Virus record (IMG/VR): IMGVR_UViG_3300030616_000016
Span: 70,561-134,560 of that record
Direction: 5' to 3' (one strand)
From: a virus
DNA length: 64,000 bases
The first letter of the stretch is position 1, and each line of letters begins with the position of its first letter. Under the pieces are notes generated by a model that was not told where the DNA came from, made no database searches, and saw only the letters and a list, made by a program, of their open reading frames with translations. The position numbers were made by a program, and so were the translations under genes. This document shows positions 21,873 to 45,196 of this stretch, one piece after another.

Positions 21873-23167
21873 TACCCCACGCCTAAAGGCGGGGGCTTCC
21901 TAATTCATCGAAAATTGCGTTCCATACTGGCTACGTCTTACATCTTCTCCAAAGGCTTTAGGTTCCCCTTGCCCAGGGGTACAAAATGCAAAATTCAAAA
22001 TATTACTAGATGCAAGGGCATCTCTATCGTGTTTGGCACCACAAGTGCAAGTCCAATATCTGTCACTTAGCTTAAGATTATTATTTATAGCGCCGCACTG
22101 GTTACACATCTTGCTGGATGGTTCAAATCTTCCTATAGTCAAAACATGCTTTCCATACCAACCTGCCTTATACTCAAGAAAGGTACGAAAAGTATACCAT
22201 CCAACATCAGAGATAGCCTTGGCCAAACAATGATTCTTCACCATTCCAGAAACGTTTAAATCCTCAAGACACACTGCTTGGTTCTCGTCAATGAGCCTTT
22301 TGGACAATTTATGCAAAAAATCTTTACGTTGATTAGAAATCTTCTCATGTATCAACGCTACCTTCCTACGAGCCTTGTTTCTATTTGAAGAACCTTTCTT
22401 CTTCTTTGATAATTGTTTTTGCTTTCTTGCCAATCTTCTTTCAAGTTTCTTTAGGTATCTTGGATTATCTATTTTCTCGCCTGTTGATAGTGTTGCAAAA
22501 TGTTTTAATCCAACGTCAACACCTACACTATTATCTCGTTCAGGATTACATTTGATAGGTAATTCTTCTCCATTGTCAACCAAAATAGAAGCAAAGTATT
22601 TCCCAGAAGGAGCCATGAATATAGTTACAGTTTTAATATTGCCTTCAAATTGTCTATGGAATTTGCATTTGATGCCATCACGGAATTTCATTACATATAG
22701 CCTATTATTATCAAAATCCACATTACTTCCTTGTGGAAATTGACAAGATTGCTTTTTGAATTTCTTCTTAAATTGAGGATATCTTGCCTGTTTCTTAAAA
22801 AACCGCCGGAAAGCATTGTCAAGGTTTCTAAAGGCCATTTGCAAAGATTGACTATTAACTTCCTTCAGCCAACCATGCTCAGATTTCATATGTTTCAATT
22901 GCTTTATCAAATCAAAACAGGAAGGAGATTTCCCCGTTTTTTGATAAGACTCTGTTTTCTTTTGGAGTCCCAAATTGTATATGAACCGTACACAACCAAA
23001 ATGCTTCACAAGAAGCTCCTGTTGTTTTTTGTTGGGGTATATTTTGTATTTATATGCTCGTATCATTATATTTATAGTATAGCACAGGTTTCTGTAAATG
23101 TCAAGAGAAAAACGCATTCTTATATCCCCATGGCTAAAGCCAGGGGTCTTACGAATGCACCTTGATA
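21866..23167 (-). mobile_element. IS200/IS605-family tnpB-only (IS1341-like) element with subterminal imperfect hairpins
   Basis: Left end begins TTATCAAGGTGCATTCGTAAGACCCCTGGCTTTAGCCATGGGG; right end finishes CCCCCGCCTTTAGGCGTGGGGTAATGTCAC. Both ends recur at 33634-33883 and 62731-62781. Confidence 0.7.
21900..23066 (-). CDS. tnpB: TnpB (OrfB) RuvC-like RNA-guided nuclease / IS605 accessory protein
   Basis: MIRAYKYKIYPNKKQQELL...FGCVRFIYN N-terminus; C-terminal CNQCG...CTCG zinc finger; RuvC-like regions. Confidence 0.85.
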   Translation of the reverse strand: MIRAYKYKIYPNKKQQELLVKHFGCVRFIYNLGLQKKTESYQKTGKSPSCFDLIKQLKHMKSEHGWLKEVNSQSLQMAFRNLDNAFRRFFKKQARYPQFKKKFKKQSCQFPQGSNVDFDNNRLYVMKFRDGIKCKFHRQFEGNIKTVTIFMAPSGKYFASILVDNGEELPIKCNPERDNSVGVDVGLKHFATLSTGEKIDNPRYLKKLERRLARKQKQLSKKKKGSSNRNKARRKVALIHEKISNQRKDFLHKLSKRLIDENQAVCLEDLNVSGMVKNHCLAKAISDVGWYTFRTFLEYKAGWYGKHVLTIGRFEPSSKMCNQCGAINNNLKLSDRYWTCTCGAKHDRDALASSNILNFAFCTPGQGEPKAFGEDVRRSQYGTQFSMN

Positions 23168-23560: not shown

Positions 23561-23608
23561 AGGAAAGTACTTATTTCAGCTTAACCTTAAGCTTCAGCTT
23601 GCCCTGTA

Positions 23609-24346
23609 TTATCCGAAAATGAAGTTACAGATGTCCTTGCCGATTTCTTTGCGTTCAACAGACGTGTTGTTTGCTTCTTCTCGTGCAAACTTGACTGCTC
23701 TCATAAGAACAGCAATTTTGTCAAGCATTTCTTTCTTACGAGTTGCAGAAATACATGTACTGAGCTTTGTAGTAGTCCAGTAACCGATAATCTCATCGCT
23801 GACTACAAGCTGAGTCTGTGCAGGATGCTTTTCAGTAGCAGCATAAAGAACGATAGGTTTCTCAACCTTACGTGTTTTATGTGTCTGACGCGCGCCTGAT
23901 TTGAACATTCCGGAATCTTCATCACGAGCCCATGTTTCTGCTGGATCCAGTTCAGGAAGTTTCTCGACATATGTTTTAATATCGTTCAGCTGTTTTTCGA
24001 GGTACAGCAAGAATGTGGGAGGGGCGTCTTTTACAATTACTGTGTCGCCAACCTTAATATCTGCTTTTGCAATGGTATTGCCAAAGTCTTTAGTTGCAGT
24101 AACATCAAACAGATCTGCGAGAGATTCCGCTACTTCGTTAATTACATTGTTCAGATTTTCTTGTACCTTTACTGATTCTTCTGGAAAGTTCTCACCTTCT
24201 TCGTCTTTAGGCTCATATACTTTATGAAGGCCATTGAATATTTGTGGTGCATCTGACAAACGATGAGCCTGAGTAATGATAGAATTATGGCGGGATTTTT
24301 CGCCCTTCTCAACTGCAATAATCTGATTAAGTTTAACTTCAGACAT
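23609..24346 (-). CDS. hypothetical protein (245 aa), locally higher GC
   Basis: minus-strand ORF. Confidence 0.5.
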   Translation of the reverse strand: MSEVKLNQIIAVEKGEKSRHNSIITQAHRLSDAPQIFNGLHKVYEPKDEEGENFPEESVKVQENLNNVINEVAESLADLFDVTATKDFGNTIAKADIKVGDTVIVKDAPPTFLLYLEKQLNDIKTYVEKLPELDPAETWARDEDSGMFKSGARQTHKTRKVEKPIVLYAATEKHPAQTQLVVSDEIIGYWTTTKLSTCISATRKKEMLDKIAVLMRAVKFAREEANNTSVERKEIGKDICNFIFG

Positions 24347-24371
24347 TTGTTACCTCCTTCTGTAAGATTTA

Positions 24372-25121
24372 TTATTCAATTATTTCTTTTATTTCTTTTA
24401 TGATACTTTCTTTTGATTTAATTTTTGGTTTTGACTCATGCAATATATTATTAGTACTTTCTTGTATCATATAATCTTCAACTTGGATAGATTTTAATGT
24501 GTCTTTATACAAGTCATCGATTGTTATATCTGAAATATCATTTACACTATCAGAATATGTTGATATCATGTTATTAAATTTTGATTTAAGCTCTACTTGT
24601 TTAGACTTTGCCCTCAGAGAAATGAGCTTAGAATCATATTCATTACATTTCTTTTCATATTCTTTTATCTTATTTTCCCAGCTAATCAGAATTTTTCTTA
24701 AAGAGCTTAGTGTTTCTTTTTTAAGCTTAACTTCTTCTTTCATTTTCTTTAGAACAAGTGACCTAGAATGAATCGTTTCTAGTTCTTTTAGGTTTCGCTC
24801 TACATTTGATTCTTTTAGATTTTTCTTTATGTTACTTGTAACTTCTTGTATATTTTGTTCAAGTCCATAAACTTCTTCTTCCAGAAACTTTATATCTATT
24901 TTTAACTCTATTGCCTGTGATTTACTTACTTTCAAATTACTTTTCAGGTCATCTATAACGACCTCGATTCTATCAATTTTTACATCTGTAGGAATTGATT
25001 TTTCTATCTTCTTAACAGTAGTTTTCTGTGCTGTTTTGACATAGCTTTTAACTCTGCTGTATCCAATAAATACGATTGCTAATATTGTTATTATGGCTAC
25101 GACAACAAGTTTTTTAATCAT
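24372..25121 (-). CDS. membrane-anchored coiled-coil protein (N-terminal TM helix)
   Basis: IKKLVVVAIITILAIVFIGY transmembrane helix followed by K/E-rich heptad-like sequence. Confidence 0.5.
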   Translation of the reverse strand: MIKKLVVVAIITILAIVFIGYSRVKSYVKTAQKTTVKKIEKSIPTDVKIDRIEVVIDDLKSNLKVSKSQAIELKIDIKFLEEEVYGLEQNIQEVTSNIKKNLKESNVERNLKELETIHSRSLVLKKMKEEVKLKKETLSSLRKILISWENKIKEYEKKCNEYDSKLISLRAKSKQVELKSKFNNMISTYSDSVNDISDITIDDLYKDTLKSIQVEDYMIQESTNNILHESKPKIKSKESIIKEIKEIIE

Positions 25122-26298
25122 TCAATTTCTCCTCTGATTTTGTTGATTTTTGTAGATTATATTGCATTATGTTTTTATCAAATTCTCTAATCTGTGTCTT
25201 CATTTCTTCTGATTCTTTTATAAGTTTGCTATATTTATGTTTGATAATAGCTTTAGAATGTAATAAGCCAATATGTTCAATAAGTTTATTAAATTTGTAA
25301 GCGAATCTAGTAGCTTTTGCTGGAATTTCTGTCAATGCTTCTACTTCTTGATCAGTTAGAGTTGAAGTTTTTAATTTATCAACTCTTGATTTTAATTCAT
25401 TAAGTTTACTTTGTGGTAATTTCAACTTATTTAATTGGTATTTGAAATCATCTTTGAGGAGATCTGCGAACTTTCCTTCTTTTGCTTCAAGTATATTATC
25501 AAAGAATCCTGTACCTTTCTTAGGTTCTTCTTCTATATATTTATCAAATCTAGTTACGGGTTCTTCCGGAGCACTCGCAAGTTCTTTCAGATACTCTGAA
25601 GGCTTAGGTAATGTTTTAGGTTCTTCTGTTGTTATTTTCTGTTGTAATGATCTTATCCACTCAGCACGTCCATCAAACTTGATGCTGTTTAAAGAAATAT
25701 GGTTATAATAATATTCAATAAGACAATCTGTTACATTTTTTAATATTTGTTCTTTTGGCATTTGATATATACAAGTCTTAAGACATTTTTTACTAATACT
25801 TTCCAAAACATTTTCTTTAATGTTTGGATATTCTGCTTTAATGTATTCTTTTATTAATGGAAGTCTTCTTTCAATAAGTTCATTATTTCTAAGATTATTC
25901 ATCATTAATAATATTACGATTGTTAAGCAAGTTCCAAAAATATATGGATTTATTTTGGTCTCAACTTTTGCAGCATCTCCATATAAGCTATGCCATATTA
26001 CAATAAGTTTTCCTGCTTGGATTATTGAATATACAATTAATGGGATAAATAATATGTATCCTAATGCCTCATATGCACTCATATATGGAAGTGTATTTAT
26101 ATTCATTATTGGCATTGGCTCCTTGGTTTGTGGAACATGGACATTGCTAAGTATTGATATAAGAATAAGTACAAACGAGATTATTAGTGCACAAAATAAT
26201 GACTTACTGGTTTGTATGATTTCAGATAAAAGTATTATCAATGCAAGTAATGGTAATCCAATACAAATGATTATTATAATGTATATAAGCACTACCAT
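25114..26298 (-). CDS. polytopic membrane protein with C-terminal coiled coil (394 aa)
   Basis: Four to five hydrophobic helices in the first 150 aa. Confidence 0.5.
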   Translation of the reverse strand: MVVLIYIIIIICIGLPLLALIILLSEIIQTSKSLFCALIISFVLILISILSNVHVPQTKEPMPIMNINTLPYMSAYEALGYILFIPLIVYSIIQAGKLIVIWHSLYGDAAKVETKINPYIFGTCLTIVILLMMNNLRNNELIERRLPLIKEYIKAEYPNIKENVLESISKKCLKTCIYQMPKEQILKNVTDCLIEYYYNHISLNSIKFDGRAEWIRSLQQKITTEEPKTLPKPSEYLKELASAPEEPVTRFDKYIEEEPKKGTGFFDNILEAKEGKFADLLKDDFKYQLNKLKLPQSKLNELKSRVDKLKTSTLTDQEVEALTEIPAKATRFAYKFNKLIEHIGLLHSKAIIKHKYSKLIKESEEMKTQIREFDKNIMQYNLQKSTKSEEKLND

Positions 26299-26300
26299 AA

Positions 26301-27305
26301 TTATCTCATTAAATATAGATTGCGTAGTTCATCTCTATCATAAAACACATTACGGATTTCTTGTCTAATATTATAGTCTTGAAATATTCTATCATAAAAA
26401 CTAGTAGTATCTCCACCAAGAAATTCTATTGCATCATTTATTGGTTGAGTTGTATTATGGTCTGGAGTAATTCCAATTCCTTCTTTCTCGACTCCATATA
26501 TATCATATATAATTCCTGCTGTGTAATTGAATCCATCGCCTCTATAAAACTTATATGCTTGTACGGCTCTAAAAGCACCAAATGTTTTAGAGCCAAATAT
26601 TGTAGCTTCTGAATAGTATTTCATTGCTGAAACAAATATTTCTGCGAATTGAAATGTACAAGCACTCGTAAGTATACACATATTATTTTTATGAAGCCAT
26701 GTATTTTCTGTTTGCACAGACATATCTGCAAAATCACTAAACGCAAATGCTGTATTATTAATTGCTGCAACTAATTCATTAGAATAAGTTTTGTGAGTAA
26801 ATCCAGCAAGCAGTTTTATGTATTCGCCTAATCCGCCATTATTACAATATCTAAGATCGAGAATTAAAGAATTGCATTCGAATTCATACATGTAATGGTT
26901 GACATTAAGCATAACAGTTTCTGCCATTCCAGCAGACATTTTATCTACAGATATATATAATATATCTGGTTCAATTTTATATATTTTTAATGTTCCTGAT
27001 GCTTCATTATCTGATATGGCTGCTTCCATTTCTTCGCTGTTTATATACCTTGTATATAAATCTGTTTCAGAACGGAGTCTATTTATATATGATTCTAAAG
27101 TATCTGAAGTTAAAGGTGGTTGAACGTTTCCATAAATATAGCCTTGTGATAATACCGAATATGCTTCTTGTAGATATTCTTCATCTACGTTTGTAATTTG
27201 ATTTTCTGTATTTGGATTGCTACTATTTCCTCCTCCTCCACAGCCATTACAAAATATAATTATGATACATAATATGAACAAATTAATTTTGATATTTTTT
27301 ATCAA
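26301..27305 (-). CDS. S41-family (C-terminal-processing / tail-specific) peptidase, lipoprotein
   Basis: Lipoprotein signal (ILCIIIIFCNGCGGGG) and the S41 hallmark LILDLRYCNNGGLG (LxLDLRxNxGG). Confidence 0.65.
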   Translation of the reverse strand: MIKNIKINLFILCIIIIFCNGCGGGGNSSNPNTENQITNVDEEYLQEAYSVLSQGYIYGNVQPPLTSDTLESYINRLRSETDLYTRYINSEEMEAAISDNEASGTLKIYKIEPDILYISVDKMSAGMAETVMLNVNHYMYEFECNSLILDLRYCNNGGLGEYIKLLAGFTHKTYSNELVAAINNTAFAFSDFADMSVQTENTWLHKNNMCILTSACTFQFAEIFVSAMKYYSEATIFGSKTFGAFRAVQAYKFYRGDGFNYTAGIIYDIYGVEKEGIGITPDHNTTQPINDAIEFLGGDTTSFYDRIFQDYNIRQEIRNVFYDRDELRNLYLMR

Positions 27306-27428
27306 GACTACCTCTTTCTGTTTAATAATGGTTGTAATGAATAGGAAAGTCTCTGGTAAGGCAAAAGGATGAAGAGCACGAGGGCTCTTTGGGGGAAGTC
27401 GAAAATTCTCACCAGAGACGGGATATAT

Positions 27429-28220
27429 TTAGAAATCAGTTGATTTTGCGGTTCTCATACCGCGAGCCATCATTTCTTTCACAAAGTCTTCTCCAAGACT
27501 TTCGAAGGTCGCTACATTTGAAGTTGTATCTTCAATTAATACAAACTTCTTAATATTCTCATCGCCGAAGTTATCAGCAATGTCTCTTACTGTATTTGCA
27601 ACACAGTGTGACAGAGCTTCTCCAGTTATGAGAATATCGTCTGCTTCCAGTAGGCTATCAAGAAGATTGCCATTAAGTCTTGTAGTAGGGTCAGACGGGT
27701 CTTCTACATCGGCTTTTACTGCTGAGTAGTGTTCTGTAAAAGGATTAGACCCTTTAGTAACATAGTCAATCATAGCAAACTGATTTTCCCACTCAGTTAT
27801 TGCTTCGAACACATTAGCATCGATTGAATGTCCTTGCGAACCAATAAGACAATGTGGCCGCCAGATGCAGAGAACATATCTGCCATTGTCTTCAAGTGTT
27901 TTTGTATAATCTGAAGCTTTCTGTTGAAGAGCTGGGTTATAGGAATGCCAGACACCATTTTTTACATCATCATGGGATATTACTGTAAATGGGTTTGGAT
28001 GTTTACCATCTTTATCAACCCAGAATATAGGATGTGCAATATGAATGGTTCTGTGAGAATCCATTGTAATATGGATATCATCTAATCCGTCTTTCATTCT
28101 GTTGACCATTTCTGCAAGACGTTTCATATCCTCATCTGCTCTAGGAACAACTAGGGCTCCTTTTGGATTACAGAAGTCATATTGAGGATCAATAGCAAGA
28201 AGATGAGTTTTCTTGTTCAT
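27429..28220 (-). CDS. isochorismatase-family cysteine hydrolase, nicotinamidase (PncA)-like
   Basis: LLAIDPQYDFCNPKGALVVP (PncA N-terminal D...DF) and LITGEALSHCVANTVRD (catalytic Cys motif). Confidence 0.65.
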   Translation of the reverse strand: MNKKTHLLAIDPQYDFCNPKGALVVPRADEDMKRLAEMVNRMKDGLDDIHITMDSHRTIHIAHPIFWVDKDGKHPNPFTVISHDDVKNGVWHSYNPALQQKASDYTKTLEDNGRYVLCIWRPHCLIGSQGHSIDANVFEAITEWENQFAMIDYVTKGSNPFTEHYSAVKADVEDPSDPTTRLNGNLLDSLLEADDILITGEALSHCVANTVRDIADNFGDENIKKFVLIEDTTSNVATFESLGEDFVKEMMARGMRTAKSTDF

Positions 28221-28239
28221 AATTGCTGACCTTTCTTAG

Positions 28240-29895
28240 TTATTTTTTAATACTGATAGAGAACATTTCTTTATCCTCTGTAAAGTATACACTGGTACCA
28301 TCAGTGTATAGTGGCATTGATGAGTCTATCGGCGGATTAGTAATAATGCGTTTTTGATTATCTTTAGAGATCTCAATCTTTTGATCGCTAAATACATCAA
28401 TGCAAACTCCATTATTAAGAACAATGAAATTGATATTATCAACATCGCGCTCTTCTTTGTCTAGCAGAATACCTTTATTTTCTTTGCTGCATAGTTTGAA
28501 TCGGAATCTATAATATTTACCAGATTCTTCTGCTATGCATACTAGAATTCCTCTGCTATGTTTTGCATTGATTATTCTAAGTCCATGGAGTTCCTCAATA
28601 GGACCTAGAAAACTACCAGAATCTTCTAATGGCGCATATGCCCAACATTTGTCTAGGAAGTTGCTAATTACTACTCCACTAAACATTTGATTCATAGTAC
28701 CAAGATTTTGGGATGGATTCGAGCATGCCGCGCTCTTATTCCCCATATTTTTTGCATATACCTCATATACTGAGGCGCCGTTTCTGCAAAATATACTACC
28801 ATTGTATATCATGGCTTTGTCTGCGGCAAATTTACCTGGTATATCCGTTTCTATTTCTACACAGCCATTATCAATTATGCCTAACACAGGGTCAGGAGAT
28901 AGATTGCATAGAAATGCCTTTTTATTGGATATATCCTTAAATATGGATTTACCACAGTATATTGCCTTATCCGTAAATGTATAGAAAATACCATTTAGGA
29001 ATTGTATTGATTTAATCGGCTCATTGTACTTATACATTGATTTAATGTCAAAATTTGCTGTGCTTCTTATAGTCTTTTGAACCATAGCTATATTAATTGT
29101 AGCGTCAGGTTTAGGTGGAGCGCTGCGTTTATTCTCAATGAATATTGACTTAAACCACTCCATATGAGCTTTAGGAATAACTGAGAAGTCTTGACATACG
29201 GATGGAATGGTAACCTTACTATCAAATACGGATATACCATCATCCATTCGCTTAGTAAATTCTCTTGGTTTATAGTCTGGGTGTTTACCCTTATAAGGAT
29301 GGATACCAACATAAAGCTGAAATGCTATTACTGCAAACGAGAACCAATCGCTTAGTTCTGTGAACTTTTTGGCTAAGCGGTCTCTTATTGAATCCATAAT
29401 AGCATTAGCTGGAAATGACTTTGTCTGATAACTGTCAACGTCAATAAAGTAAGGTACTTTATGACCTTTGTCTATCAGAAAGTTCATTTCATTCATATCT
29501 ACTATCAGGCATTGTTTAGAATGAATGTGCTCGACCGTGTCTTGTATATTGCGCACAATTTCTAATACTTGATTAGGAGATATATTATTATCTTTTCTGT
29601 ACTGCTTAGTAAAGAGCTTGCATAGAGCACTTGTCTCTTTAATATACTTCATTGTATATCCGATGACATTGCTTGTCTTTTTATCGCAAACAATATCTTC
29701 CGGTTTGATAACATTGCCGGCTGTTATATAGCCAAGCTCTTCAATCTTTCTTAATGGTATCATATGCTTGATATCATTATAAATCTTGAAGGCAATATTG
29801 TCTTTTTTATATACAGAACCTTGACCACCAGATGCAATAAAATCATTGTCTTTCAGGTCAAATGAAGCCTTTGTTCTATTTACAATGACTCTCAT
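28240..29895 (-). CDS. Hanks-type Ser/Thr protein kinase with a C-terminal beta-rich domain
   Basis: Gly loop GGQGSVY, AFKIY (VAIK), catalytic loop HSKQCLIVDMNEMNFLI, and DVDSY (DFG-like). Confidence 0.7.
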   Translation of the reverse strand: MRVIVNRTKASFDLKDNDFIASGGQGSVYKKDNIAFKIYNDIKHMIPLRKIEELGYITAGNVIKPEDIVCDKKTSNVIGYTMKYIKETSALCKLFTKQYRKDNNISPNQVLEIVRNIQDTVEHIHSKQCLIVDMNEMNFLIDKGHKVPYFIDVDSYQTKSFPANAIMDSIRDRLAKKFTELSDWFSFAVIAFQLYVGIHPYKGKHPDYKPREFTKRMDDGISVFDSKVTIPSVCQDFSVIPKAHMEWFKSIFIENKRSAPPKPDATINIAMVQKTIRSTANFDIKSMYKYNEPIKSIQFLNGIFYTFTDKAIYCGKSIFKDISNKKAFLCNLSPDPVLGIIDNGCVEIETDIPGKFAADKAMIYNGSIFCRNGASVYEVYAKNMGNKSAACSNPSQNLGTMNQMFSGVVISNFLDKCWAYAPLEDSGSFLGPIEELHGLRIINAKHSRGILVCIAEESGKYYRFRFKLCSKENKGILLDKEERDVDNINFIVLNNGVCIDVFSDQKIEISKDNQKRIITNPPIDSSMPLYTDGTSVYFTEDKEMFSISIKK

Positions 29896-30731
29896 GGCTT
29901 ATCCTTAAGCAGTGTAGCACATGCTATATCATCAAAGTGCTTATTGTTTATTTTGGAATCCATGATGCGTATTTTCTTCATTCTTCTTTTTACAAACTCT
30001 CCTTTGAAGGTTTTATATACAGTCATTCGTATAGCGTTATCAAGCACACTTGTATTTTCAAAAGAGCTTATACCATCAGTGAACAGGCTTATGCTCATTC
30101 CTTCTGCCATTGGCGCACTAGACATTATGTATGGCTCGAACATGGGGATTGTAGAGCTCTTAAAGTCTTCGTCTGGGTTATATGACAATACTGTTTTTTC
30201 TGGATTGCCCAATATATCCATAGTATTCATATAGTCTTTAATCTTTTCATCTTCCATGCGATATGCAAGATAGTATGGCATGTTAGATGTATATGATATT
30301 TCTTCAATACGAATCCATGGATTTGGGTCATTCGCTCTATCAAAACCATCATTAAAGACAACTACTCCATCTCCCCATACTGCTATGCCAAATCCCTCAT
30401 TATTGGCTATTACTACCATAAGCGTGGCATAGAATGTCTGGATGTCAAGACAAAGAGCTATTGCTACTTTTGATAGCGCTCCCAACACTTTATTTTCAAA
30501 TGAACAAAGAGCAGTTGATAATGTCTTGTGTCCAAACATAACTATTGAGCTTCTTAATGCTTGTTCTGCAGCAATTCCAAGTATTTTTGCACCAAGGTCT
30601 GTGTTTTGTGCAGAAGAACAGCCGTCACAGACGATACCATAGGAATAACCATAGATATCGCCTGTGATAGCATAATCTTCACACATATCATGACTGGCAC
30701 CAATTTCTACAAAACTATCTTTCTGTATCAT
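29892..30731 (-). CDS. PP2C-family Ser/Thr phosphatase
   Basis: GASHDMCEDYAI ... GIVCDGCSS ... DGVVVFNDG are the PP2C metal-binding Asp motifs. Confidence 0.65.
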   Translation of the reverse strand: MIQKDSFVEIGASHDMCEDYAITGDIYGYSYGIVCDGCSSAQNTDLGAKILGIAAEQALRSSIVMFGHKTLSTALCSFENKVLGALSKVAIALCLDIQTFYATLMVVIANNEGFGIAVWGDGVVVFNDGFDRANDPNPWIRIEEISYTSNMPYYLAYRMEDEKIKDYMNTMDILGNPEKTVLSYNPDEDFKSSTIPMFEPYIMSSAPMAEGMSISLFTDGISSFENTSVLDNAIRMTVYKTFKGEFVKRRMKKIRIMDSKINNKHFDDIACATLLKDKP

Positions 30732-30747
30732 TGGTACTCCCAGTCAT

Positions 30748-31497
30748 TTAGAAGTTAAGAATTGAAGATGCCGAGCCGGATCCAAGAGACTGTGATTGTG
30801 AGGATATGCTTTGACTCACAAATTCAGCCAGCTTTGCAAGCTTGGATGGAGTAGCTTCTCCGACAGATACGTATTTATCAAGGTTTGCATTATCCTTGAA
30901 TGTAGTCAAGAAATTCTTGACTGCAGGATCTTTATCAATCCCGATAAGAACCGTAATAATTGATTCGAGGCTTTCTTCTCTTGTGATATCATCTACTAAC
31001 GTAGCAACTTGTACTGGCGCATTATTTGATTGATTATCAGCGCCATCTGTAATGATAAATACAATTGCATTTGTTAGGAGATCTACTTTATCATACATCT
31101 GCTTGCTATACTGATGTGTTGCTTCGATGCCTTCATATGTTGCATCAAATAATGCAGTTGTACCGCCTGTACGGATGATATTAGAGTATTCATCATCACT
31201 AATATCACTTAGGAGGCGGAAACCATGCATTTCGTTCAGATTAGCATTGAATGTAGTGAAGCGAACCATTAAGTTTTCTGCACGTGGAGACTTTTTGCAT
31301 GATTCGATTACAGTTTTCAGCATATCCTCAATATCATCTTTGTATGGAGACACTGAAGAAGATACGTCGATAATAATTGAAACGAGTGTATATTCAGAAG
31401 CACCTAGTTCATCAAGCTTTACAGCACTGAATCTGAAGTTTGATGCAGTCTGCATACTGGTTATGTTTGCAAGATCTTTATCCATTAATCTTGGCAT
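30748..31497 (-). CDS. von Willebrand factor A (vWA, TerY-like) domain protein
   Basis: MIDAS: IIIDVSSSV (DxSxS), GGTTAL, FIITDGADN. Confidence 0.75.
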   Translation of the reverse strand: MPRLMDKDLANITSMQTASNFRFSAVKLDELGASEYTLVSIIIDVSSSVSPYKDDIEDMLKTVIESCKKSPRAENLMVRFTTFNANLNEMHGFRLLSDISDDEYSNIIRTGGTTALFDATYEGIEATHQYSKQMYDKVDLLTNAIVFIITDGADNQSNNAPVQVATLVDDITREESLESIITVLIGIDKDPAVKNFLTTFKDNANLDKYVSVGEATPSKLAKLAEFVSQSISSQSQSLGSGSASSILNF

Positions 31498-31499
31498 GG

Positions 31500-32486
31500 T
31501 TATTTCCTTTCTTTGTTAAGCCTGTTTCCTTCTCCTAAATGCATAAGGGGAAGCGGTTTAGGGCTATCACCATTTAGGAAGTATACCTTGGTAGCCGGGT
31601 CTTTTGTAATTGTACCTAGTGCTTTAAGTGCTTCAAGCTGGATATATGCAGGATTATTTGCAATAGCATCGTTAACTTTCTGAATTTCATATGCTTTTGC
31701 GTCTGCAAGGATCTTCTGTTTTTCTGCTGAAAGCATTGCGGCGTCTTTATCTGCCTGAGCAGTTTTAACTTTCTTCTGCTGTTCAGTCTCAAACCTGCGC
31801 AACTCTGCTTTCTCACGTTCAGCTTCCTGCTCGCGTTTCTTCTTACTCTCAACACCTTGCTGGATTGTGTTGGGAAGTTGAATATTTCTAATGAGAACAG
31901 CTTCAACATCAAGGCCCTTTGGTGCAACGTATTCTTTAATTGAAGTAAGAAGATTTGCCTGCATCTTTTGCTGAATTTCTTCCCTAAAGAATGACTCTGC
32001 AGTTTTCACACTTTTACCTTGTTCTCGCAATAAGCTTCGGAACTTGGGTAACATGTGTACTTCCATAAGGTCTTTAGGATTACCGGTTTCTTGCAGAATG
32101 TCTGGAGCCATAGACTTGATAATTCGATACTGACAGCTTACATCGAATGTCGTAACAAGCTGGTCCATACTTGGGATGGGAACCTGGCTCATTGTAATAC
32201 TTTTCTGACGACAATCGAATTCTTCCCAATCATACAAAGGATTGGTAAGGTGAATGCCTGCTTCATAGGGCTGATCAACGACTTTACCAAAGAATGTAGC
32301 TACTCCAATATGTCCTGGAGGTATTGAGATAACACATGAAGCGATGAGAGTAATAGCGCCGACGGCTCCTACCAGTAGACCGCCAAGAATATAAGGACGC
32401 CTTTTTTCTTCTGATTTAGCCATAAGACCATATACAAACACCAACAAACCGATTAATGCAATTATAATACCAAGAGCAAGTATCAT
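31500..32486 (-). CDS. SPFH/band-7 (stomatin/flotillin-like) membrane protein with coiled-coil C-terminus
   Basis: N-terminal TM helices followed by an SPFH core (GHIGVATFFGKVVD...), then EQQKKVKTAQADKDAAML coiled coil. Confidence 0.7.
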   Translation of the reverse strand: MILALGIIIALIGLLVFVYGLMAKSEEKRRPYILGGLLVGAVGAITLIASCVISIPPGHIGVATFFGKVVDQPYEAGIHLTNPLYDWEEFDCRQKSITMSQVPIPSMDQLVTTFDVSCQYRIIKSMAPDILQETGNPKDLMEVHMLPKFRSLLREQGKSVKTAESFFREEIQQKMQANLLTSIKEYVAPKGLDVEAVLIRNIQLPNTIQQGVESKKKREQEAEREKAELRRFETEQQKKVKTAQADKDAAMLSAEKQKILADAKAYEIQKVNDAIANNPAYIQLEALKALGTITKDPATKVYFLNGDSPKPLPLMHLGEGNRLNKERK

Positions 32487-32921
32487 ATTACTACCTTTCT
32501 AAATCAAATTACTTTTTAGTATATATACCAATGAAACCATTCCACTGGTAATTTTTGTACTTAATACCACAAATGAATCCAAACAATAGTGTAGATAGAA
32601 CAACAAAGCCTATCATTATTAAAGTAGCTTTTGCTAATTGTTTCATTCTACACCTCTATAATAAGTAAGTTTCCGTATAGCAGCCAACTCCTGGGGAAAT
32701 CGACATTAGGAAAGCATGTCGACTAACTATATGTCTCCATATAGAACAGGTGAAACGTTGGTTTCTCGATTAACTTTCACCTTTCAGCTGTCAACTTTCA
32801 AATCCTGAACTTTGAATTTTAAAGTTTGAGCTTTGAAGGGCTAAGTTTAGTTCGTATTATGAGTACGATACGTAATTCCTATTTTCTTTTCTCCCTCTTC
32901 GCTATGGAAAACTTATTGTAT

Positions 32922-33497
32922 TTATTCTATTGTAATAGTAGTCGTTGCATTGATCATTGACAGCTTACCGTCAATTTCATCTTCAATTTCGCCAAGCTCT
33001 TCCAGTTTCTTATGAACACTTGGTGCATCGACACTGATGACAAGTCCCGCACTGTCTTTGTCGAAGCTGTTGTTCATCGATTCTTCTTGCTTTACATGGC
33101 TATAAACTTGCATATATGAAGTTTTAATTGAAGGGAGAGTTTCTCTTCTCCAAATTAGCCATTCTGCAATTGTCATTTCATAATTGCCAATTTTAACAAC
33201 AGTTGCTTCATTTGCAAGCTGAATTGCCATTCTGATGTTCTTTTTGCGTTCGGCAAGATCAGTGATTGTTTGCATTGTATCTTGCACGAATTTTGCTGAT
33301 CCGCCTTCATTTTCGTATGGATCCTTAAATTTCTCATTCCTTATAGAAACATCAATAACTGCTTTAGTTTTCTTGTTAATCTTATTATTGATGAGTTTAA
33401 TTTCTGCGAGCCCTTCCGTAATAGTCATGTTTGATTCCATGCTGAACCTTTCCTCTCTATTAATTTGTTTTAACCAAAAATTCACCAAACAACACAA
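32922..33497 (-). CDS. hypothetical protein (true start possibly the internal Met at about 33440)
   Basis: minus-strand ORF. Confidence 0.45.
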   Translation of the reverse strand: MCCLVNFWLKQINREERFSMESNMTITEGLAEIKLINNKINKKTKAVIDVSIRNEKFKDPYENEGGSAKFVQDTMQTITDLAERKKNIRMAIQLANEATVVKIGNYEMTIAEWLIWRRETLPSIKTSYMQVYSHVKQEESMNNSFDKDSAGLVISVDAPSVHKKLEELGEIEDEIDGKLSMINATTTITIE

Positions 33498-33633
33498 CTT
33501 GCTTATTAAATGATAATTAGATAGTTACTTAGATAATCAAATTATTTGATAGATCGGTAACATATCTCAATTATGCAATTTTTTGGTAATATATGTATAT
33601 CACTGTGCCTTAAAATGAGTACCTATTATCGTT

Positions 33634-33887: not shown

Positions 33888-35558
33888 TTAGTTTATAAGG
33901 CAAAACAGATACTTCTGAATTCTGTCACTGCCTGTTGCATATTCGTCTATCAGGCGATATAAGAGCTTGTCCCAGCCTTTAGATAGCATCAACTGCATTA
34001 CAGTGATGTATATCCTTGTTCCAGACCTCTTACCACTATTTGCATATATTCCATCATCAGATAGCTTACGACTGCATGCATGAGTATTTGTCTGGTGGCT
34101 GAACTTATCTAATACTATCCAGAACACTTTCCCAGACCATGCCTCAACTGTCTGTCCGTTATAAGTATGCTTTTGTGGCTTGCATTCTTTTATAAGAGCA
34201 GATGGTATATTCCCATCTTCTCCTTCTAGAAAGTGAGGAACGGGCGCCGGCCCTGATTCCTCTGCAATATTATTAAGCATAGCTTCTACTATCTGACCTG
34301 GATTCCTACGCTTTAGAGTTGCAAGAGCGTTGGTTACCACTTCTGCTGGTTTGCCATCTATCTTAGGCATTTGCTCGTCTGGTATAATATTTACTATACC
34401 TTTATTACCGTGACGATTTGTAATTTTGTCGCCACTTCTGAGAATATGAAATCTCTCGTATTCGACAATAAGTTTTGTACAAACTGTGTTTGCTACTTTT
34501 GTTCTTATCTCACTGATATTAGACAGTTTAGCTTCACGCTTGACATGACATTTAAGCGTGATTGTTTCTTCTCCATCAGAATAAGAACCAATTATCTGAT
34601 TTGGTCTTACAATGTCTCCGGCTTTGGCTTCCATCTTTAGGCTTTGTTTGCACCATCCTGGTACTACGAATGTCTGTTTCTCAGGAATGACACATGTCAT
34701 TTTTCTAGCTGCTGACTTACTCATAACAATCTGTTCTTTGTATACACCAGGCATGATTGCATGAACTGTAAGTAAGTGCTTGCCATTAAGATTGTTATCA
34801 TAATCTTCTGGAAACACCATAGGTTTATCTGGACTAACTAGCTTGCTGGAAGCCTTGAAATTAGATGCAGTGGTTCTGCGGCGATTATATTCTGGTACAA
34901 TAAGATTCTTATTGAGTATATCGCAATAAACCCGACCTCTTTTGGTGAAGCATCCAATATCGTTTATTTTGCATTCTTCAGCCATGTACATTGTGCGACC
35001 ACAATTCCCCGATGACTGACTTATACTTGTCCAATCAAGAATGCCTTCTGTATTGAATGGCATAAATTCATCCGTTCGTTCTTGAAATAGCTCTAATGAT
35101 ATTTTGGGTCCATAGTGAGTAGCTATTCCCTTTACGACATGAGATAATCTTGAAGTTTTAAGTAAATTATCGAGCTTCATTTGAGCTGTGGTAGAATCTT
35201 CTTGATGTCCGAACATAAAGAAGTCTGACAGTTGTGTAGCATATGCTTGCTTAATGAATTTAAGAAGAAGCTCGTATGGTGTTGATAAATATGTGTGATT
35301 AATATTCATACATCTGTTATTAAAGATTGGCATTGGATTAAGTGTATAGCATAATTGCCGGCTTATTCCATTTACAGAAAACATACCCTTGTTATCAATC
35401 TTAGGTATATTTAGTTTTACGACTGTTTGCATGCTCTGGGATGCCTCTTTAACAAGCATTTTTGTATGAAATAGGTCATCATATTCTTCTATATGACAGT
35501 CAACAGGCAAACAATTACATATAGGAAACAATCTTGCAAGATGAGACTTATTCATCAT
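33888..35558 (-). CDS. multisubunit RNA polymerase beta-subunit-like protein (C-terminal module of beta)
   Basis: GDKITNRHGNKGIVNIIPDEQMPKIDGKPAEVVTNALA aligns with RpoB GDKMAGRHGNKGVVS...; the GKVFWIVLDKFSHQTNTHACSRK region matches the RpoB C-terminal conserved block. Confidence 0.8.
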   Translation of the reverse strand: MMNKSHLARLFPICNCLPVDCHIEEYDDLFHTKMLVKEASQSMQTVVKLNIPKIDNKGMFSVNGISRQLCYTLNPMPIFNNRCMNINHTYLSTPYELLLKFIKQAYATQLSDFFMFGHQEDSTTAQMKLDNLLKTSRLSHVVKGIATHYGPKISLELFQERTDEFMPFNTEGILDWTSISQSSGNCGRTMYMAEECKINDIGCFTKRGRVYCDILNKNLIVPEYNRRRTTASNFKASSKLVSPDKPMVFPEDYDNNLNGKHLLTVHAIMPGVYKEQIVMSKSAARKMTCVIPEKQTFVVPGWCKQSLKMEAKAGDIVRPNQIIGSYSDGEETITLKCHVKREAKLSNISEIRTKVANTVCTKLIVEYERFHILRSGDKITNRHGNKGIVNIIPDEQMPKIDGKPAEVVTNALATLKRRNPGQIVEAMLNNIAEESGPAPVPHFLEGEDGNIPSALIKECKPQKHTYNGQTVEAWSGKVFWIVLDKFSHQTNTHACSRKLSDDGIYANSGKRSGTRIYITVMQLMLSKGWDKLLYRLIDEYATGSDRIQKYLFCLIN

Positions 35559-37074
35559 TATCTTTCTCCAATACTAGGACTCTGTCCCTGAGATACTTGA
35601 TGAGTTGATTTTTGTCTTCGTTATTCAGTACATTCATGATGTGTTCTATGGCTAGAGTATAGAAAGCGTCGCCTTCTACCATGCTTAGTCTAGGATCAAA
35701 CACTGCATAGAATATAGAATTCTCTGCGTCTACTATATCATTAATTAACTTAGGGTTATCCCTATTATATAGTAGATTAAGATATGGCTCGACTTGTTCT
35801 ACGTCTATCTCACAATCTTTAAGTATTTCGCGAGCTACGTTTATGTCGCTAATACCATCATTTTTAAGTACTTTAATGAGACTGACATATGATTCATCAA
35901 GTTTATGTTTAGAATCAAATAGGCGCTGGTTTGCTTGTTCTGATAGCTTATCTGCAGCTTTGGCTATTTCTATATTGCCATCTGCCAATACTCTTGCACG
36001 ACATGCTGCGGCTCCAGCCTTGCCAATCTCTGATTTCTGGAGAATGAGGCCTTTTGCAACCTTGATGTCGTCTTCTCGTATTTCAGATAAGGACTTGCCT
36101 TTAAAGAATCCTGTAAGGTCCTTAACGTCAATGTCTTCTGCATTACACATGGCTTTTATTGTCTCAGAATTTTCTGTGTCAATAAGGTCATGTGGTCCAA
36201 TTACTCTGAATTTTGAGATTCTTTTTACACCATCATCTATTATGTTTTCCAAGTCAGGGGTTTCTTCTTGATTATCGATAAGAAACTCTTTGTCCCACTT
36301 TGTTGTGGACCAGTCTTCTTCTATATCAATATCAGGATACCCAAGTACTGTTTCAATTAGATCTCCATCGGAATCAGCACCCATGCCATCAGTAATAATG
36401 GGATGAATAATGATCCTGTTGGATTTAGTAGGAAGTATGTATAACTTGCGCATAGAATCGTTGTGTAGCAAGGGATTTCTGAATGCAATTACATAAGGCT
36501 TCCCTTCTGTATTGGACTCTTCTTTCCTTTCTTTCCACTTTTCTATGAACTTGACATATATATGCTGAGGTAATTTTATGTGGTCATAAGGCATTCTGAA
36601 GTCGGTAGCAATATGGCCTTTACCAGAATATAATGCTCTGAAACCAAGGATATATGTATTAAACAATCCTGATTTACCGACCAGCTCTTTAGCCATTATT
36701 TTCCATACTCTTTCAGCACTATCTTCCACTACTTCTGTGTCAATATTGCCAATACCAAGTTGGCTAATTGACACAAGTAGTTTTTCTGTAGCGATTTGTA
36801 TATCATTTAATACTATGTGCCCGGCTACTGGTCCTGGCATATTCATATTAGGGATTATTACTTTTTGAACCTTCTTGCCGAAGTAATTATTTATTTCAAT
36901 CGGCAAGTGTACATACCCGCCATACTGAAGTACATCTTCATCAAGTATGGTGTTTTTGAGGTTCTTATTAAGTAAATCCGGTTTTGAAATGATCGCTTTT
37001 GTTGTATTCGAAAATAGATTTCTTCGTATCTGTATATTACCACACTGTTTCGATAAACTCGTCAGATTCATCAT
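35548..37074 (-). CDS. multisubunit RNA polymerase beta'-subunit-like protein (catalytic N-terminal module)
   Basis: VIAFRNPLLHNDSMRKLYILP (NRQPSLH-like) and IITDGMGADSDGDLIE (NADFDGD catalytic loop variant). Confidence 0.75.
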   Translation of the reverse strand: MMNLTSLSKQCGNIQIRRNLFSNTTKAIISKPDLLNKNLKNTILDEDVLQYGGYVHLPIEINNYFGKKVQKVIIPNMNMPGPVAGHIVLNDIQIATEKLLVSISQLGIGNIDTEVVEDSAERVWKIMAKELVGKSGLFNTYILGFRALYSGKGHIATDFRMPYDHIKLPQHIYVKFIEKWKERKEESNTEGKPYVIAFRNPLLHNDSMRKLYILPTKSNRIIIHPIITDGMGADSDGDLIETVLGYPDIDIEEDWSTTKWDKEFLIDNQEETPDLENIIDDGVKRISKFRVIGPHDLIDTENSETIKAMCNAEDIDVKDLTGFFKGKSLSEIREDDIKVAKGLILQKSEIGKAGAAACRARVLADGNIEIAKAADKLSEQANQRLFDSKHKLDESYVSLIKVLKNDGISDINVAREILKDCEIDVEQVEPYLNLLYNRDNPKLINDIVDAENSIFYAVFDPRLSMVEGDAFYTLAIEHIMNVLNNEDKNQLIKYLRDRVLVLEKDNDE

Positions 37075-43009: not shown

Positions 43010-44020
43010 TTACCAAGGCCAGTTAGGGACCTCGATCTTATGAACATGTTTCAAGTGATCGAATGCATAAGGCTGGAAAGGCGCTTCGACGCCATAATGA
43101 GCACGATAAGCAACTTCCCACCAGTGAGACAGGAATATCTTAGTAGCCCATCTCTTACTTCTCATATGAATCTGACTATTGGGGAGCTTGCCTTCGCGAT
43201 ATATTGCCCTCTGTTTATGACCAGGCACTCTTCGAAGAACTTCTCGTGCAATATGCGCATATTCCTTGGCTTCATTCTTACGCGACTCGATAATCTTCCT
43301 TTCAACAACAAGATGTCCATAGAGATCTTTTGGATTGTTGCATGTCATATTGAAAGACTCACCGATTTTCCAGCAGAGTGTTTTCAGTTCTGAATTCCAG
43401 GGACGCATTGACAGACCTCTGTAAAGCGTCTTGCCTGTATGAACTCCGCCTCCTTTCTGTAATGAGAGACGAAGTGCGGTAGCTGCTTTGATTCCTCCGG
43501 CTTCTTGTATCGCATTTGCTACCTTAATAGCATCTTCTTCAGATACTCTTCTTGTACTATCAGGATTAATACCGGCTTCGTCAACCATGATTTCTCTTGT
43601 AACTTTCTTGCCAAGCCAGCGCTTTCCGTCTACAAGACCAGCATAGCTATAGATATGTCCTGGAGTCTTAGCTTTGTCCATATCTATATGGGCAATAAGA
43701 CCGGCGCTGATAACAGGGCCAATACCTACAACTGATTGAGCCCATGTACCAATTTTTGTTGATAATGAGAAATGATTGAGCGCGAGCTTCACCTGATTCT
43801 CAAGACGCTCCGCATTCTTAAGAAACCAATCAAGCACTTCCATTGGAGGGTCGTCTACGCCCTGCTCTGCTGCTCTAAGCTGACCAGCAAGCCTGATTCT
43901 CTGGTTCTGCATGGTATAATAACTATCTACCAGATAGCGGGCTTCCTGACGCGTAATCTTTCTTGACGCGTTTCTTATGTCTTTACCTACTCTTTCAATA
44001 ATTTCTTCAATAGCCATCAC
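43010..44020 (-). CDS. hypothetical Trp-rich protein (336 aa) with a Transposase_20-like helix-hairpin-helix motif; locally GC-rich
   Basis: VVGIGPVISAGLIAHIDMDKAKTPGHIYSYAGLV resembles the IS110-family C-terminal HhH (PGIG..tA..L.A...D..RF.s...L.sYAGL). No DEDD N-terminal domain was recognised. Confidence 0.45.
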   Translation of the reverse strand: MMAIEEIIERVGKDIRNASRKITRQEARYLVDSYYTMQNQRIRLAGQLRAAEQGVDDPPMEVLDWFLKNAERLENQVKLALNHFSLSTKIGTWAQSVVGIGPVISAGLIAHIDMDKAKTPGHIYSYAGLVDGKRWLGKKVTREIMVDEAGINPDSTRRVSEEDAIKVANAIQEAGGIKAATALRLSLQKGGGVHTGKTLYRGLSMRPWNSELKTLCWKIGESFNMTCNNPKDLYGHLVVERKIIESRKNEAKEYAHIAREVLRRVPGHKQRAIYREGKLPNSQIHMRSKRWATKIFLSHWWEVAYRAHYGVEAPFQPYAFDHLKHVHKIEVPNWPW

Positions 44021-44038: not shown

Positions 44039-45196
44039 TTAAAGCATGTTTACCATGCTATTATATAGACCCGCATACTCTTGCGGGCCTGAACGTTTGC
44101 CTGGGTTATCGGACAATTTAACAGTAGGAACAAAGCCCTCTCTATTATATGAACAGGCAGTCATTTTAATAACGATATTAAGAGGATCTACTCCAACATC
44201 ATTAGTGAAATTAGTGCCTATACCATATACTGTTTTGATTCTTTTGTTTACATATTCTTCTATCTCAAGAACCTTGTCAACATCAAGAGAGTCTGAGAAT
44301 ACAATGGTTTTTGTACTTGGATCTATACCAAGGCTCTCATAGTGTTTTATTATTTTGTCAGCAAATTCCATAGGATCGCCTGAATCTTGCCTTACACCAT
44401 CCCAAAGACTCGCTCTGACATAATCAAATGATCTTAGAAACCAATCAGTTGTATAAGTATCAGTAAGCGCTATGCCTAGTTTGCCCTTATATGTCTCTGC
44501 CCATTTATCAAGGGCAATAGAAGTAGCCATTTGAGGACCAAATATGGCGCCGTGGAACATAAACCACTCATGAGCTTGTGTGCCAATTGGTCGCATGTTA
44601 TGAGTGGTTGCTAATAATACATTACTTGTACCAAGACAGTATTGTGAAATTTGTTTTCTTGTAGACATGTCATCCAGAAGTTCATTCTGTACACCAAATG
44701 AAAATCTGCGTCTGGTTCCGAATTCTATGAAGTTGACTTTGTGCTTGATGAGTTTGTCAACCTTGTCTACATTTGTTTTATATCTTTCTTTCCTGAACTT
44801 AGGCGCTATACCAAGCTTAAGATAGTATAGCTCGCTAATAGCCGCTAATAGCGGTACTTCCCATAGTATAGCAGAATACCATGGCCCGCATATTTCTACT
44901 TTGAGATCTTCGTCTGTTTGTGTAACACATACTTCATTAGGATTGAATCGATGATGTCGTAGGTATTCTAGATATGTTGAATCAAAGACTCCAATCTTTC
45001 GCATAGCTGTAATACTATCGTCTATAAAGTATGTATGTTGCATATGATCAATAAACTCATTTAATTCCTTTTGCATACTTTCAGGGAACTCAGTCTTTGT
45101 TCTTGACTTGAATTCATATTTTACTAATGCAGATGGATAGTGTTTAAGTACTGCATTTTGCATGGCGAACTTATAGAAATCATTGTCTGCTGCCAT
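44039..45196 (-). CDS. pncB: nicotinate phosphoribosyltransferase (NAPRTase, PncB-type)
   Basis: FIEFGTRRRFS, LGTSNVLLA and VRQDSGDP signatures of the NaPRTase family. Confidence 0.8.
   Translation of the reverse strand: MAADNDFYKFAMQNAVLKHYPSALVKYEFKSRTKTEFPESMQKELNEFIDHMQHTYFIDDSITAMRKIGVFDSTYLEYLRHHRFNPNEVCVTQTDEDLKVEICGPWYSAILWEVPLLAAISELYYLKLGIAPKFRKERYKTNVDKVDKLIKHKVNFIEFGTRRRFSFGVQNELLDDMSTRKQISQYCLGTSNVLLATTHNMRPIGTQAHEWFMFHGAIFGPQMATSIALDKWAETYKGKLGIALTDTYTTDWFLRSFDYVRASLWDGVRQDSGDPMEFADKIIKHYESLGIDPSTKTIVFSDSLDVDKVLEIEEYVNKRIKTVYGIGTNFTNDVGVDPLNIVIKMTACSYNREGFVPTVKLSDNPGKRSGPQEYAGLYNSMVNML

Follow-up and report, generated by a model that had tools for sequence, protein, structure and literature searches.

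The window analysed here is a 64,000-nucleotide stretch of the IMG/VR virus record IMGVR_UViG_3300030616_000016 (positions 70,561 to 134,560 of that record). It belongs to a 231.6-kb metagenomic contig (ENA ERZ27252234, k141_1275754) that carries phage replication genes, including helicases, a UvsX-like recombinase and split genes resembling an RNA polymerase beta subunit. On the minus strand, the window encodes a cassette of four adjacent genes for a vWA protein, a PP2C phosphatase, a Ser/Thr kinase and a nicotinamidase-like protein (nic), preceded by a gene for an SPFH protein. In the direction of transcription, this segment contains the following features.

31500-32486, minus strand: SPFH protein, recognised by Band_7
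30748-31497, minus strand: vWA protein, TerY/YegL-like (249 aa), recognised by its conserved metal-ion-dependent adhesion site (MIDAS) and modelled fold
29892-30731, minus strand: PP2C phosphatase (279 aa), recognised by PP2C_2
28240-29895, minus strand: YegI-like kinase with a predicted C-terminal beta-propeller, recognised by conserved residues, hhalign and modelled fold
27429-28220, minus strand: nic, a predicted PncA-type nicotinamidase (263 aa), recognised by its relatives in the PDB and conserved residues
27372-27389, minus strand: weak terminator-like hairpin from a consensus scan, a pattern match only

An earlier note on this DNA, made from the letters alone, had named six genes in the region, and all six are intact open reading frames (ORFs) on the minus strand at the positions it had assigned to them. 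From SPFH through vWA, PP2C and kinase to nic, the genes are spaced by 2, 16, -4 and 19 nt, the stop of the PP2C gene overlapping the start of the kinase gene by 4 nt. Given the 2-nt gap to vWA, SPFH is probably co-transcribed with the cassette. A gap of 123 nt separates nic from an S41-like gene, the first of a second, tightly packed block. The hairpin, with a 6-pair stem and a T-rich tail, lies in this gap and may represent the 3' end of the cassette transcript. At the opposite end, an intergenic stretch of 435 nt upstream of SPFH (32487-32921) contains only generic sigma-70-like matches; it is the likely location of the predicted promoter region. No close DNA relative of positions 23600-33500 was found by megablast among 50,697 phage records.

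A vWA protein, a PP2C phosphatase and a kinase make up the TerY-P triad. Its description goes back to Anantharaman et al. 2012; the definition used here is second-hand, from PMC11090510 and PMC4978471. The window contains the same three components as E. coli YegL-PphC-YegI, in the same order: MIDAS-bearing vWA protein, PP2C phosphatase and Hanks-type kinase. The earlier note had read SPFH-vWA-PP2C-kinase as a TerY-P neighbourhood. The triad bears this out, while SPFH, as described below, does not belong to the pattern. Pfam supports the domain assignments of the note in part: Band_7, PP2C_2 and Peptidase_S41 are over their thresholds, but Pkinase scores 30.1 bits, slightly below the cutoff of 31.7, and VWA has no match on the vWA protein of the window.

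The assignment of the kinase relies on its conserved residues and fold. In an alignment of 34 full-length homologues, G23 and G24 of the Gly-rich loop, the alphaC Glu E53, D133 and N138 of the catalytic loop and the DFG-equivalent D152 are invariant, and the beta3 Lys K37 is present in at least 90% of the sequences. The earlier note had made its kinase call depend on the catalytic Lys and Asp, and both are retained. Residues 1-265 match E. coli YegI with 97.9% probability in hhalign (E 4.6e-13). Once the numbering is corrected for an offset of two residues, K37, D133 and D152 line up with K39, D141 and D159 of YegI, which are named as catalytic (bioRxiv 10.1101/819920). S155, also conserved, aligns with the mapped autophosphorylation site of YegI. 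By these comparisons the kinase domain is clearly YegI-like.

The remainder of the protein differs from known TerY-P kinases. The AlphaFold model (pLDDT 88.5) consists of a kinase domain (residues 1 to ~265) followed by an all-beta domain (~282-551). In Foldseek searches the N-terminal part retrieves IRAK4, CDK and BRAF, which share the Hanks kinase fold, and the C-terminal part retrieves the beta-propellers of Nup133, Hsv2 and DDB1. The model thus assigns the C-terminal domain as a beta-propeller. The kinases of TerY-P defence systems carry an OB fold, those linked to CoCoNuT a zinc ribbon and YegI a membrane hairpin; none of these three is part of the cassette kinase. The combination of kinase and propeller defines a large family, with 1677 matches in a word-indexed database and 1261 clusters at 50% identity in an exhaustive full-length profile search (E<=1e-30). 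A scan of IMG/VR with the single kinase sequence gave no match; the related loci were recovered with an alignment as the query.

The phosphatase matches PP2C_2 with an E-value of 3.7e-10 (40.1 bits against a cutoff of 24). In 22 sequences, D19, D36-G37, G120-D121-G122, D219-G220 and D267-D268 are invariant, and all canonical metal-binding aspartates (D19, D36, D121, D219, D267 and D268) are kept. Its similarity to E. coli PphC is weak, with a profile match at E 7e-4 and an insignificant pairwise BLASTP result (E 0.096). The vWA protein is likewise only weakly similar to E. coli YegL (hhalign E 1.1e-4, probability 56%). A phmmer search of PDB sequences returned nothing useful for it, and the fold was assigned from structure prediction instead: the AlphaFold model (pLDDT 88.2) matches exclusively vWA/MIDAS domains in the PDB by Foldseek. 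Its homologues carry PF00092 and/or the JGI name 'YegL' (COG TerY). Of the MIDAS residues, D44, S48, T114 and D151 never vary and S46 hardly does. The Ser-rich C-terminal helix, FVSQSISSQSQSLG (residues 217-240 in the model), is also conserved, with S228, S230, S232 and S235 invariant, and a comparable Ser-rich C-terminus is present in YegL.

The fourth gene, nic, encodes a protein whose nearest solved structures are the nicotinamidases Pnc1 from yeast (2h0r) and PncA from P. horikoshii (1ilw), with which it aligns at the DxQxDF and DxH...H motifs. D11, K156 and C206, forming an Asp-Lys-Cys triad, are invariant in 19 cassette proteins and match E. coli PncA. At least 90% of the sequences retain D54 and H56, which align with the 'RDWHP' motif of Pnc1, and the invariant H123 within 'PHC' aligns with 'DHC' of E. 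coli PncA. These Asp/His/His residues are presumably metal ligands, a role that we take from the structures of Pnc1 and M. tuberculosis PncA. While nic shares the catalytic triad and the metal site with the canonical nicotinamidases (E. coli PncA, Pnc1 and P. horikoshii PncA), it exceeds them by ~50 residues, an insertion separating the metal-site motifs (~residues 64-118), and is only ~30% identical to E. coli PncA in a gapped MAFFT alignment. The family comprises 3168 homologues, many of them called nicotinamidase or carrying PF00857. Judged by its residues, nic is a PncA-type enzyme of a divergent subfamily, with an intact Asp-Lys-Cys triad, a zinc site and predicted nicotinamidase activity.

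To follow the cassette beyond the window, we compared 80 loci from IMG/VR, three huge uncultured phages (462-595 kb) and 80 loci from genomes or metagenome-assembled genomes (MAGs). Clustering of all ORFs in 85 viral loci yields exactly four near-universal families, namely the kinase (85), PP2C (85), vWA (79) and nic (77). Restricting the set to non-redundant loci with 5 kb or more of sequence upstream leaves 69 from viruses and 44 from genomes and MAGs. The former contain PP2C in 68, vWA in 66 and nic in 65 cases; the latter contain vWA in 41, nic in 40 and PP2C in 36. Divergent PP2C proteins are under-detected by tblastn. The triad is therefore syntenic in related phages, the point on which the earlier note had staked its grouping. 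All 35 complete genome sets and 62 of the 63 complete viral ones have the genes on one strand in the order nic-vWA-PP2C-kinase, a recurrence that puts the grouping of the four genes far beyond chance. It persists while the kinases diverge to ~30% identity, and the median span of the cassette in genome loci is 4.3 kb.

The nicotinamidase-like hydrolase, mentioned in the earlier note as a gene that follows the triad, proves to be a conserved fourth member of the cassette and the best conserved one, at ~55% identity against ~35% for the kinase. In the closest relative of the window, the kinase is 54%, the vWA protein 71% and nic 68% identical, and nic lies directly upstream of vWA. Compared with the usual order, nic has shifted to the 3' end of the cassette in the window, its place 5' of vWA being taken by SPFH.

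Beyond the hairpin, the second block comprises the following genes.

26301-27305, minus strand: S41-like lipoprotein, recognised by Peptidase_S41
25114-26298, minus strand: polytopic membrane protein (394 aa)
24372-25121, minus strand: coiled-coil protein with a transmembrane anchor
23609-24346, minus strand: DUF7873 protein (DUF7873, 8e-90)

Positions 24372-27305 on the minus strand thus form an envelope-directed block, with an S41-fold lipoprotein, a protein of about four transmembrane segments and the membrane-anchored coiled-coil protein. The lipoprotein matches Peptidase_S41 (E 3.9e-16, 59.5 bits) and has an S41 fold, its best solved matches being non-catalytic IRBP modules. It has no tblastn match among the 50,697 phage records. 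At the position of the Ser-rich active-site motif of S41 proteases, which we take to be GSASASE, it reads 'TSACTFQFAE', with no obvious nucleophile Ser as judged by eye in one IRBP alignment. The DUF7873 protein has homologues in 75 cultured phage records, among them Arthrobacter, Gordonia, Vibrio, Rhizobium and Klebsiella phages, and those listed are annotated as hypothetical; a scan of IMG/VR for it gave no match. Just downstream of the block lies an intact TnpB/IS605 OrfB gene (21900-23117, minus strand) with HTH_OrfB_IS605, OrfB_IS605 and Cas12f1-like TNB domains, and relatives of it occur in several related huge-phage loci (L041, L062 and L020).

In the earlier note, the genes from SPFH through the triad and the hydrolase to the S41 protease and the membrane and coiled-coil proteins were proposed to be a single membrane signalling unit under phage control. 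They do share one strand, the gap from SPFH to vWA is 2 nt, the SPFH, S41-like, 394-aa and coiled-coil proteins have signal or transmembrane segments, and the coiled-coil protein shows a weak PspA/IM30 similarity (1e-4). The SPFH assignment itself is firm, with Band_7 at E 2.7e-24 (86.6 bits), phrog_200 at 2.7e-55 and two N-terminal hydrophobic segments. However, the additional genes are not syntenic. In phmmer searches of all ORFs, an SPFH homologue was found in one of 164 related loci, 9 kb from the cassette, and an S41 homologue in one, not beside the triad; the membrane, coiled-coil and DUF7873 proteins were found in none of the 164 by tblastn and phmmer. The closest relative lacks both SPFH and the S41 block. 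The 123-nt gap and the hairpin separate the block from nic, the S41-like protein appears to lack its nucleophile, and the vWA, PP2C, kinase and nic proteins, all devoid of transmembrane segments, leave a membrane device without a basis. We consider such a unit highly improbable. The gene content of the related loci points instead to SPFH as a lineage-specific gene that was joined to the cassette locally and is no conserved member of it, and to the S41 block as a separate, unrelated unit.

The cassette occurs in huge phages and T4-like phages as well as in Armatimonadota, Acidobacteriota, Myxococcota, Desulfobacterales and Gammaproteobacteria. In a crude distance-based neighbour-joining tree, kinases from these five bacterial groups cluster by phylum, and the kinase of the window falls among viral sequences. 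Many of the 'genome' loci are MAG contigs and could be mis-binned phage DNA. That this holds for all of them was rejected for several loci, on the basis of their cellular flanks and of the taxon-coherent kinase clades. On a Capsulimonadaceae chromosome, the flanking genes encode a BlaR1-type peptidase, an amino-acid permease, a flavin reductase, an ECF sigma factor and a fusion of WGR and ligase domains; on a Deltaproteobacteria contig, they encode histidine kinases, solute-binding proteins and glycogen phosphorylase. These flanks and the grouping of bacterial kinases by phylum make the cassette an operon of cells and of phages alike.

A 38-kb contig from Logan (L172, SRR13892586) derives from a T4-like phage with gp32, RegA and topoisomerase II. 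It carries pncA, pncB, NADAR and PP2C genes separated by runs of small ORFs, and a 246-aa ORF of unassigned family occupies the place of vWA. As this phage is T4-like, the cassette extends beyond one phage lineage.

The genes that accompany the cassette are related to NAD+ and ADP-ribose. After the four cassette families, the next families in the 85 viral loci are PncB (34), NUDIX (27), NadE (27) and NadD-like proteins (18), and NAD-dependent DNA ligase (LigA), NADAR and PARP+WGR are further recurrent neighbours. Among the non-redundant loci, 49 of 66 from viruses and 30 of 37 from genomes have at least one additional NAD/ADP-ribose gene no more than 10 kb from the cassette, and PncB is found within this distance in 23 of the viral ones. 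In bacteria, NUDIX is the most frequent neighbour (21 of 37 genome loci), and the compact genome cassettes are often flanked by NUDIX or pncB. PncA, PncB, NadD and NadE together constitute the deamidating, or Preiss-Handler, salvage route from nicotinamide to NAD+. The window contains one further gene of this route.

44039-45196, minus strand: PncB, nicotinate phosphoribosyltransferase, recognised by TIGR01514, PRK05321 and Pfam NAPRTase

This gene is located ~12 kb upstream of the cassette on the same strand, and its product matches TIGR01514 (394 bits against a cutoff of 269.55), PRK05321 (438 bits) and Pfam NAPRTase (9e-57). PncB is predicted to use the product of PncA and would be a distal pathway partner of the cassette. 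Adjoining it is an ORF with a weak match to IS110-family transposases (43010-44020, minus strand), which hints that the NAD+ genes of the phage are rearranged by mobile elements.

In relatives, genes for a PARP with WGR and regulatory domains (L005:15738-17150), a bacterial 1000-aa fusion of WGR and ATP-dependent ligase (L116:3642-6644), NADAR (L007:1790-2269) and a Thg1-like protein (L012:15952-16641) are located beside the cassette, and together they make up an island of NAD+/ADP-ribose and nucleic-acid repair genes. In yeast, Pnc1 controls Sir2 through the removal of nicotinamide. In a similar way, the cassette could govern ADP-ribosylation signalling: PncA would remove nicotinamide, the product inhibitor of PARPs, sirtuins and ADP-ribosyltransferases, and the phospho-switch would tie this to a signal of damage or infection. 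The recurrence of PARP+WGR, NADAR, the WGR-ligase fusion and, above all in bacteria, NUDIX is consistent with such a role. However, PARP is infrequent within 10 kb of the cassette (5 of 66 viral loci, 4 of 37 genome loci), and the commonest phage neighbours, PncB, NadE and NadD, make sense for the resynthesis of NAD+ only. We hold control of ADP-ribosylation to be unlikely, although it is not mutually exclusive with a function in NAD+ supply and the two are compatible.

The analysis is consistent with a core of four soluble proteins whose genes are part of the NAD+ salvage repertoire of huge phages and, in several bacterial phyla, form a compact operon. We propose that it is a phosphorylation-controlled nicotinamide-salvage module, common to bacteria and huge phages, in which a TerY-P-like phospho-switch is combined with PncA; we regard the chances for and against this proposal as balanced. 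Nicotinamide would be set free by NAD+ cleavage, for which NADase immune effectors of the host or, alternatively, ADP-ribosyltransferases, PARP or sirtuins would be responsible. PncA would convert it to nicotinate and PncB would convert nicotinate to nicotinate mononucleotide (NaMN), from which NadD and NadE of the phage or the host would complete NAD+. The triad would tune the activity or the assembly of this route through reversible Ser/Thr phosphorylation. In such a scheme, the kinase propeller could serve as a docking or sensing surface, the vWA protein could act as a MIDAS-dependent adaptor with its invariant Ser-rich C-terminal helix as the likely phospho-acceptor, and PP2C would reset the switch. 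Which protein is phosphorylated, what the propeller binds, in which direction the switch acts and how the phage profits under NAD+ depletion are all points that we infer. By analogy with NARP1-3 and with the NAD+ clusters of jumbo phages, both described below, the benefit to the phage may consist in rebuilding NAD+ after NADase immunity or heavy NAD+ consumption.

Besides the possible mis-binning of MAG contigs, several points weigh against this proposal. nic stays below the curated cutoffs (Isochorismatase, 18.8 against 27 bits; PRK11609, 33.7 against 174; NCBIfam nicotinamidase/pyrazinamidase, E 3e-8 but under the cutoff). In phages, 0-6 kb of variable genes often lie between the cassette members, which loosens the operon argument. 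The triad is linked to PncA by gene order alone, and no fusion proteins were seen. Another Preiss-Handler enzyme lies within 10 kb in only 36 of 66 viral loci. A tblastn search of the 64-kb window for NadE, NadD, NUDIX, NADAR, PARP and LigA found none of them, PncB alone being present. Finally, the roles known for TerY-P triads are in phage defence or alongside DNA-processing systems, not in metabolism (PMC11090510).

The last point raises the alternative that the cassette is a self-contained immune or superinfection-exclusion system of the TerY-P type, with pncA as a frequent neighbour in a variable 'conflict island'. The composition and order of the triad are those of TerY-P and of E. coli yegL-pphC-yegI, and defence against phage by TerY-P-like modules was shown by Gao et al. 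2020, as cited in PMC11090510. The kinase has weak matches to the defence kinases mad6 and PD-T4-6, and the phage loci around the cassette are variable. Against this, pncA is adjacent, co-oriented and in a fixed place in >90% of loci, in bacteria and phages alike and with kinases down to ~30% identity, and it is the most conserved member. No nuclease, helicase or other effector family recurs among the clustered neighbour families, the neighbours being metabolic NAD+ genes, and the kinase tail is a modelled propeller in place of an OB fold or zinc ribbon. We regard a defence system as quite unlikely. A negative PADLOC result, with no TerY-P match for the vWA and PP2C proteins, was dropped as evidence, as E. 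coli YegL and PphC are likewise unmatched.

Compared with TerY-P, the cassette has an obligatory fourth gene, pncA, and its neighbours are NAD+ salvage and ADP-ribose genes, without ter genes, McrBC/CoCoNuT, helicases or nucleases. By composition the triad fits TerY-P; it fails in the C-terminal module of the kinase and in the association with ter or DNA-processing genes. On present sequence comparisons, it is best filed as a variant with a fourth gene.

The proposed salvage module can also be compared with known NAD+ reconstitution by phages. Phages rebuild NAD+ through NARP1 and NARP2 to evade NADase immunity (bioRxiv 10.1101/2024.02.11.579819), and NARP3 is a further such route (PMC13464706). 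The three are enzyme pairs, Adps+Namat, Nampt+Nmnat and PnuC+NadR-like (PMC13464706), that rebuild NAD+ from breakdown products or precursors. NARP2 also starts from nicotinamide. None of the NARP-defining pairs was found in the cassette, whose route, known here from genes alone, would be the deamidating Preiss-Handler entry by PncA and then PncB, with NadD and NadE in relatives. While the cassette includes a kinase, phosphatase and vWA switch, no such switch is associated with the NARPs. Clusters of pncB, nadD and nadE ('BGCs') are carried by gut jumbo phages (PMC11662467), so that the same Preiss-Handler enzymes are grouped on other huge phage genomes. No kinase, phosphatase or vWA protein is mentioned there, whereas the pncA of the cassette is tied to the triad and also occurs in bacterial chromosomes. 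We did not find the cassette described in literature on nicotinamidase, vWA, PP2C, TerY and phages, in comparisons of jumbo phages or in the NARP papers, the 2012 work on TerY-P being represented by papers that cite it.

A more specific version of the salvage proposal is a sensor-controlled NAD+ rescue. The propeller or the MIDAS would detect a product of NAD+ cleavage, such as nicotinamide, ADP-ribose or an ADP-ribosylated protein, and phosphorylation of the vWA protein would activate PncA-PncB. Huge phages would then possess a regulated, fourth reconstitution route, acquired from bacterial NAD+ homeostasis operons and directed against NADase-based immunity. We see this version as unlikely.

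Several other genes in the window were noted. Two overlapping ORFs upstream of the cassette (33888-35558 and 35548-37074, minus strand) resemble the split multisubunit RNA polymerase of jumbo phages. The first matches RNA_pol_Rpb2_6 (2.4e-13); for the second, PHROG gives nothing at E<=1e-5 and no Pfam domain is annotated in the record of its contig. Closer to SPFH, a 191-aa ORF (32922-33497, minus strand) matches phrog_1491, 'tail fiber protein' (1.7e-19), a label that is doubtful because the ORF sits among metabolic and transcription genes. At one end of the window, a polymerase/reverse-transcriptase-like ORF, with matches to phrog_2825 (4e-31) and phrog_1423 (4e-11), adjoins a UvsX-like recombinase (878-2026 and 1983-3107, minus strand).

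TerY-P triads are widespread and include one validated anti-phage system, yet their substrates and output are not known, and YegI of E. coli is likewise without a known substrate (bioRxiv 10.1101/819920). The cassette subfamily brings a built-in candidate output, a nicotinamidase with a simple assay and a defined pathway, and the logic of the triad therefore becomes directly testable. If the cassette is present in a cultured strain, the Capsulimonas lineage, whose genomes contain it, may serve as a bacterial model. The depletion and reconstitution of NAD+ is a central front of the conflict between phages and bacteria, in which NARP1-3 are unregulated enzyme pairs. A sensor-controlled rescue, if true, would for the first time assign a metabolic output to a triad of the TerY-P type. 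A phosphorylation-gated entry into the Preiss-Handler pathway, if true, would be new both as a route and as a level of control, spread over >1,200 sequence clusters.

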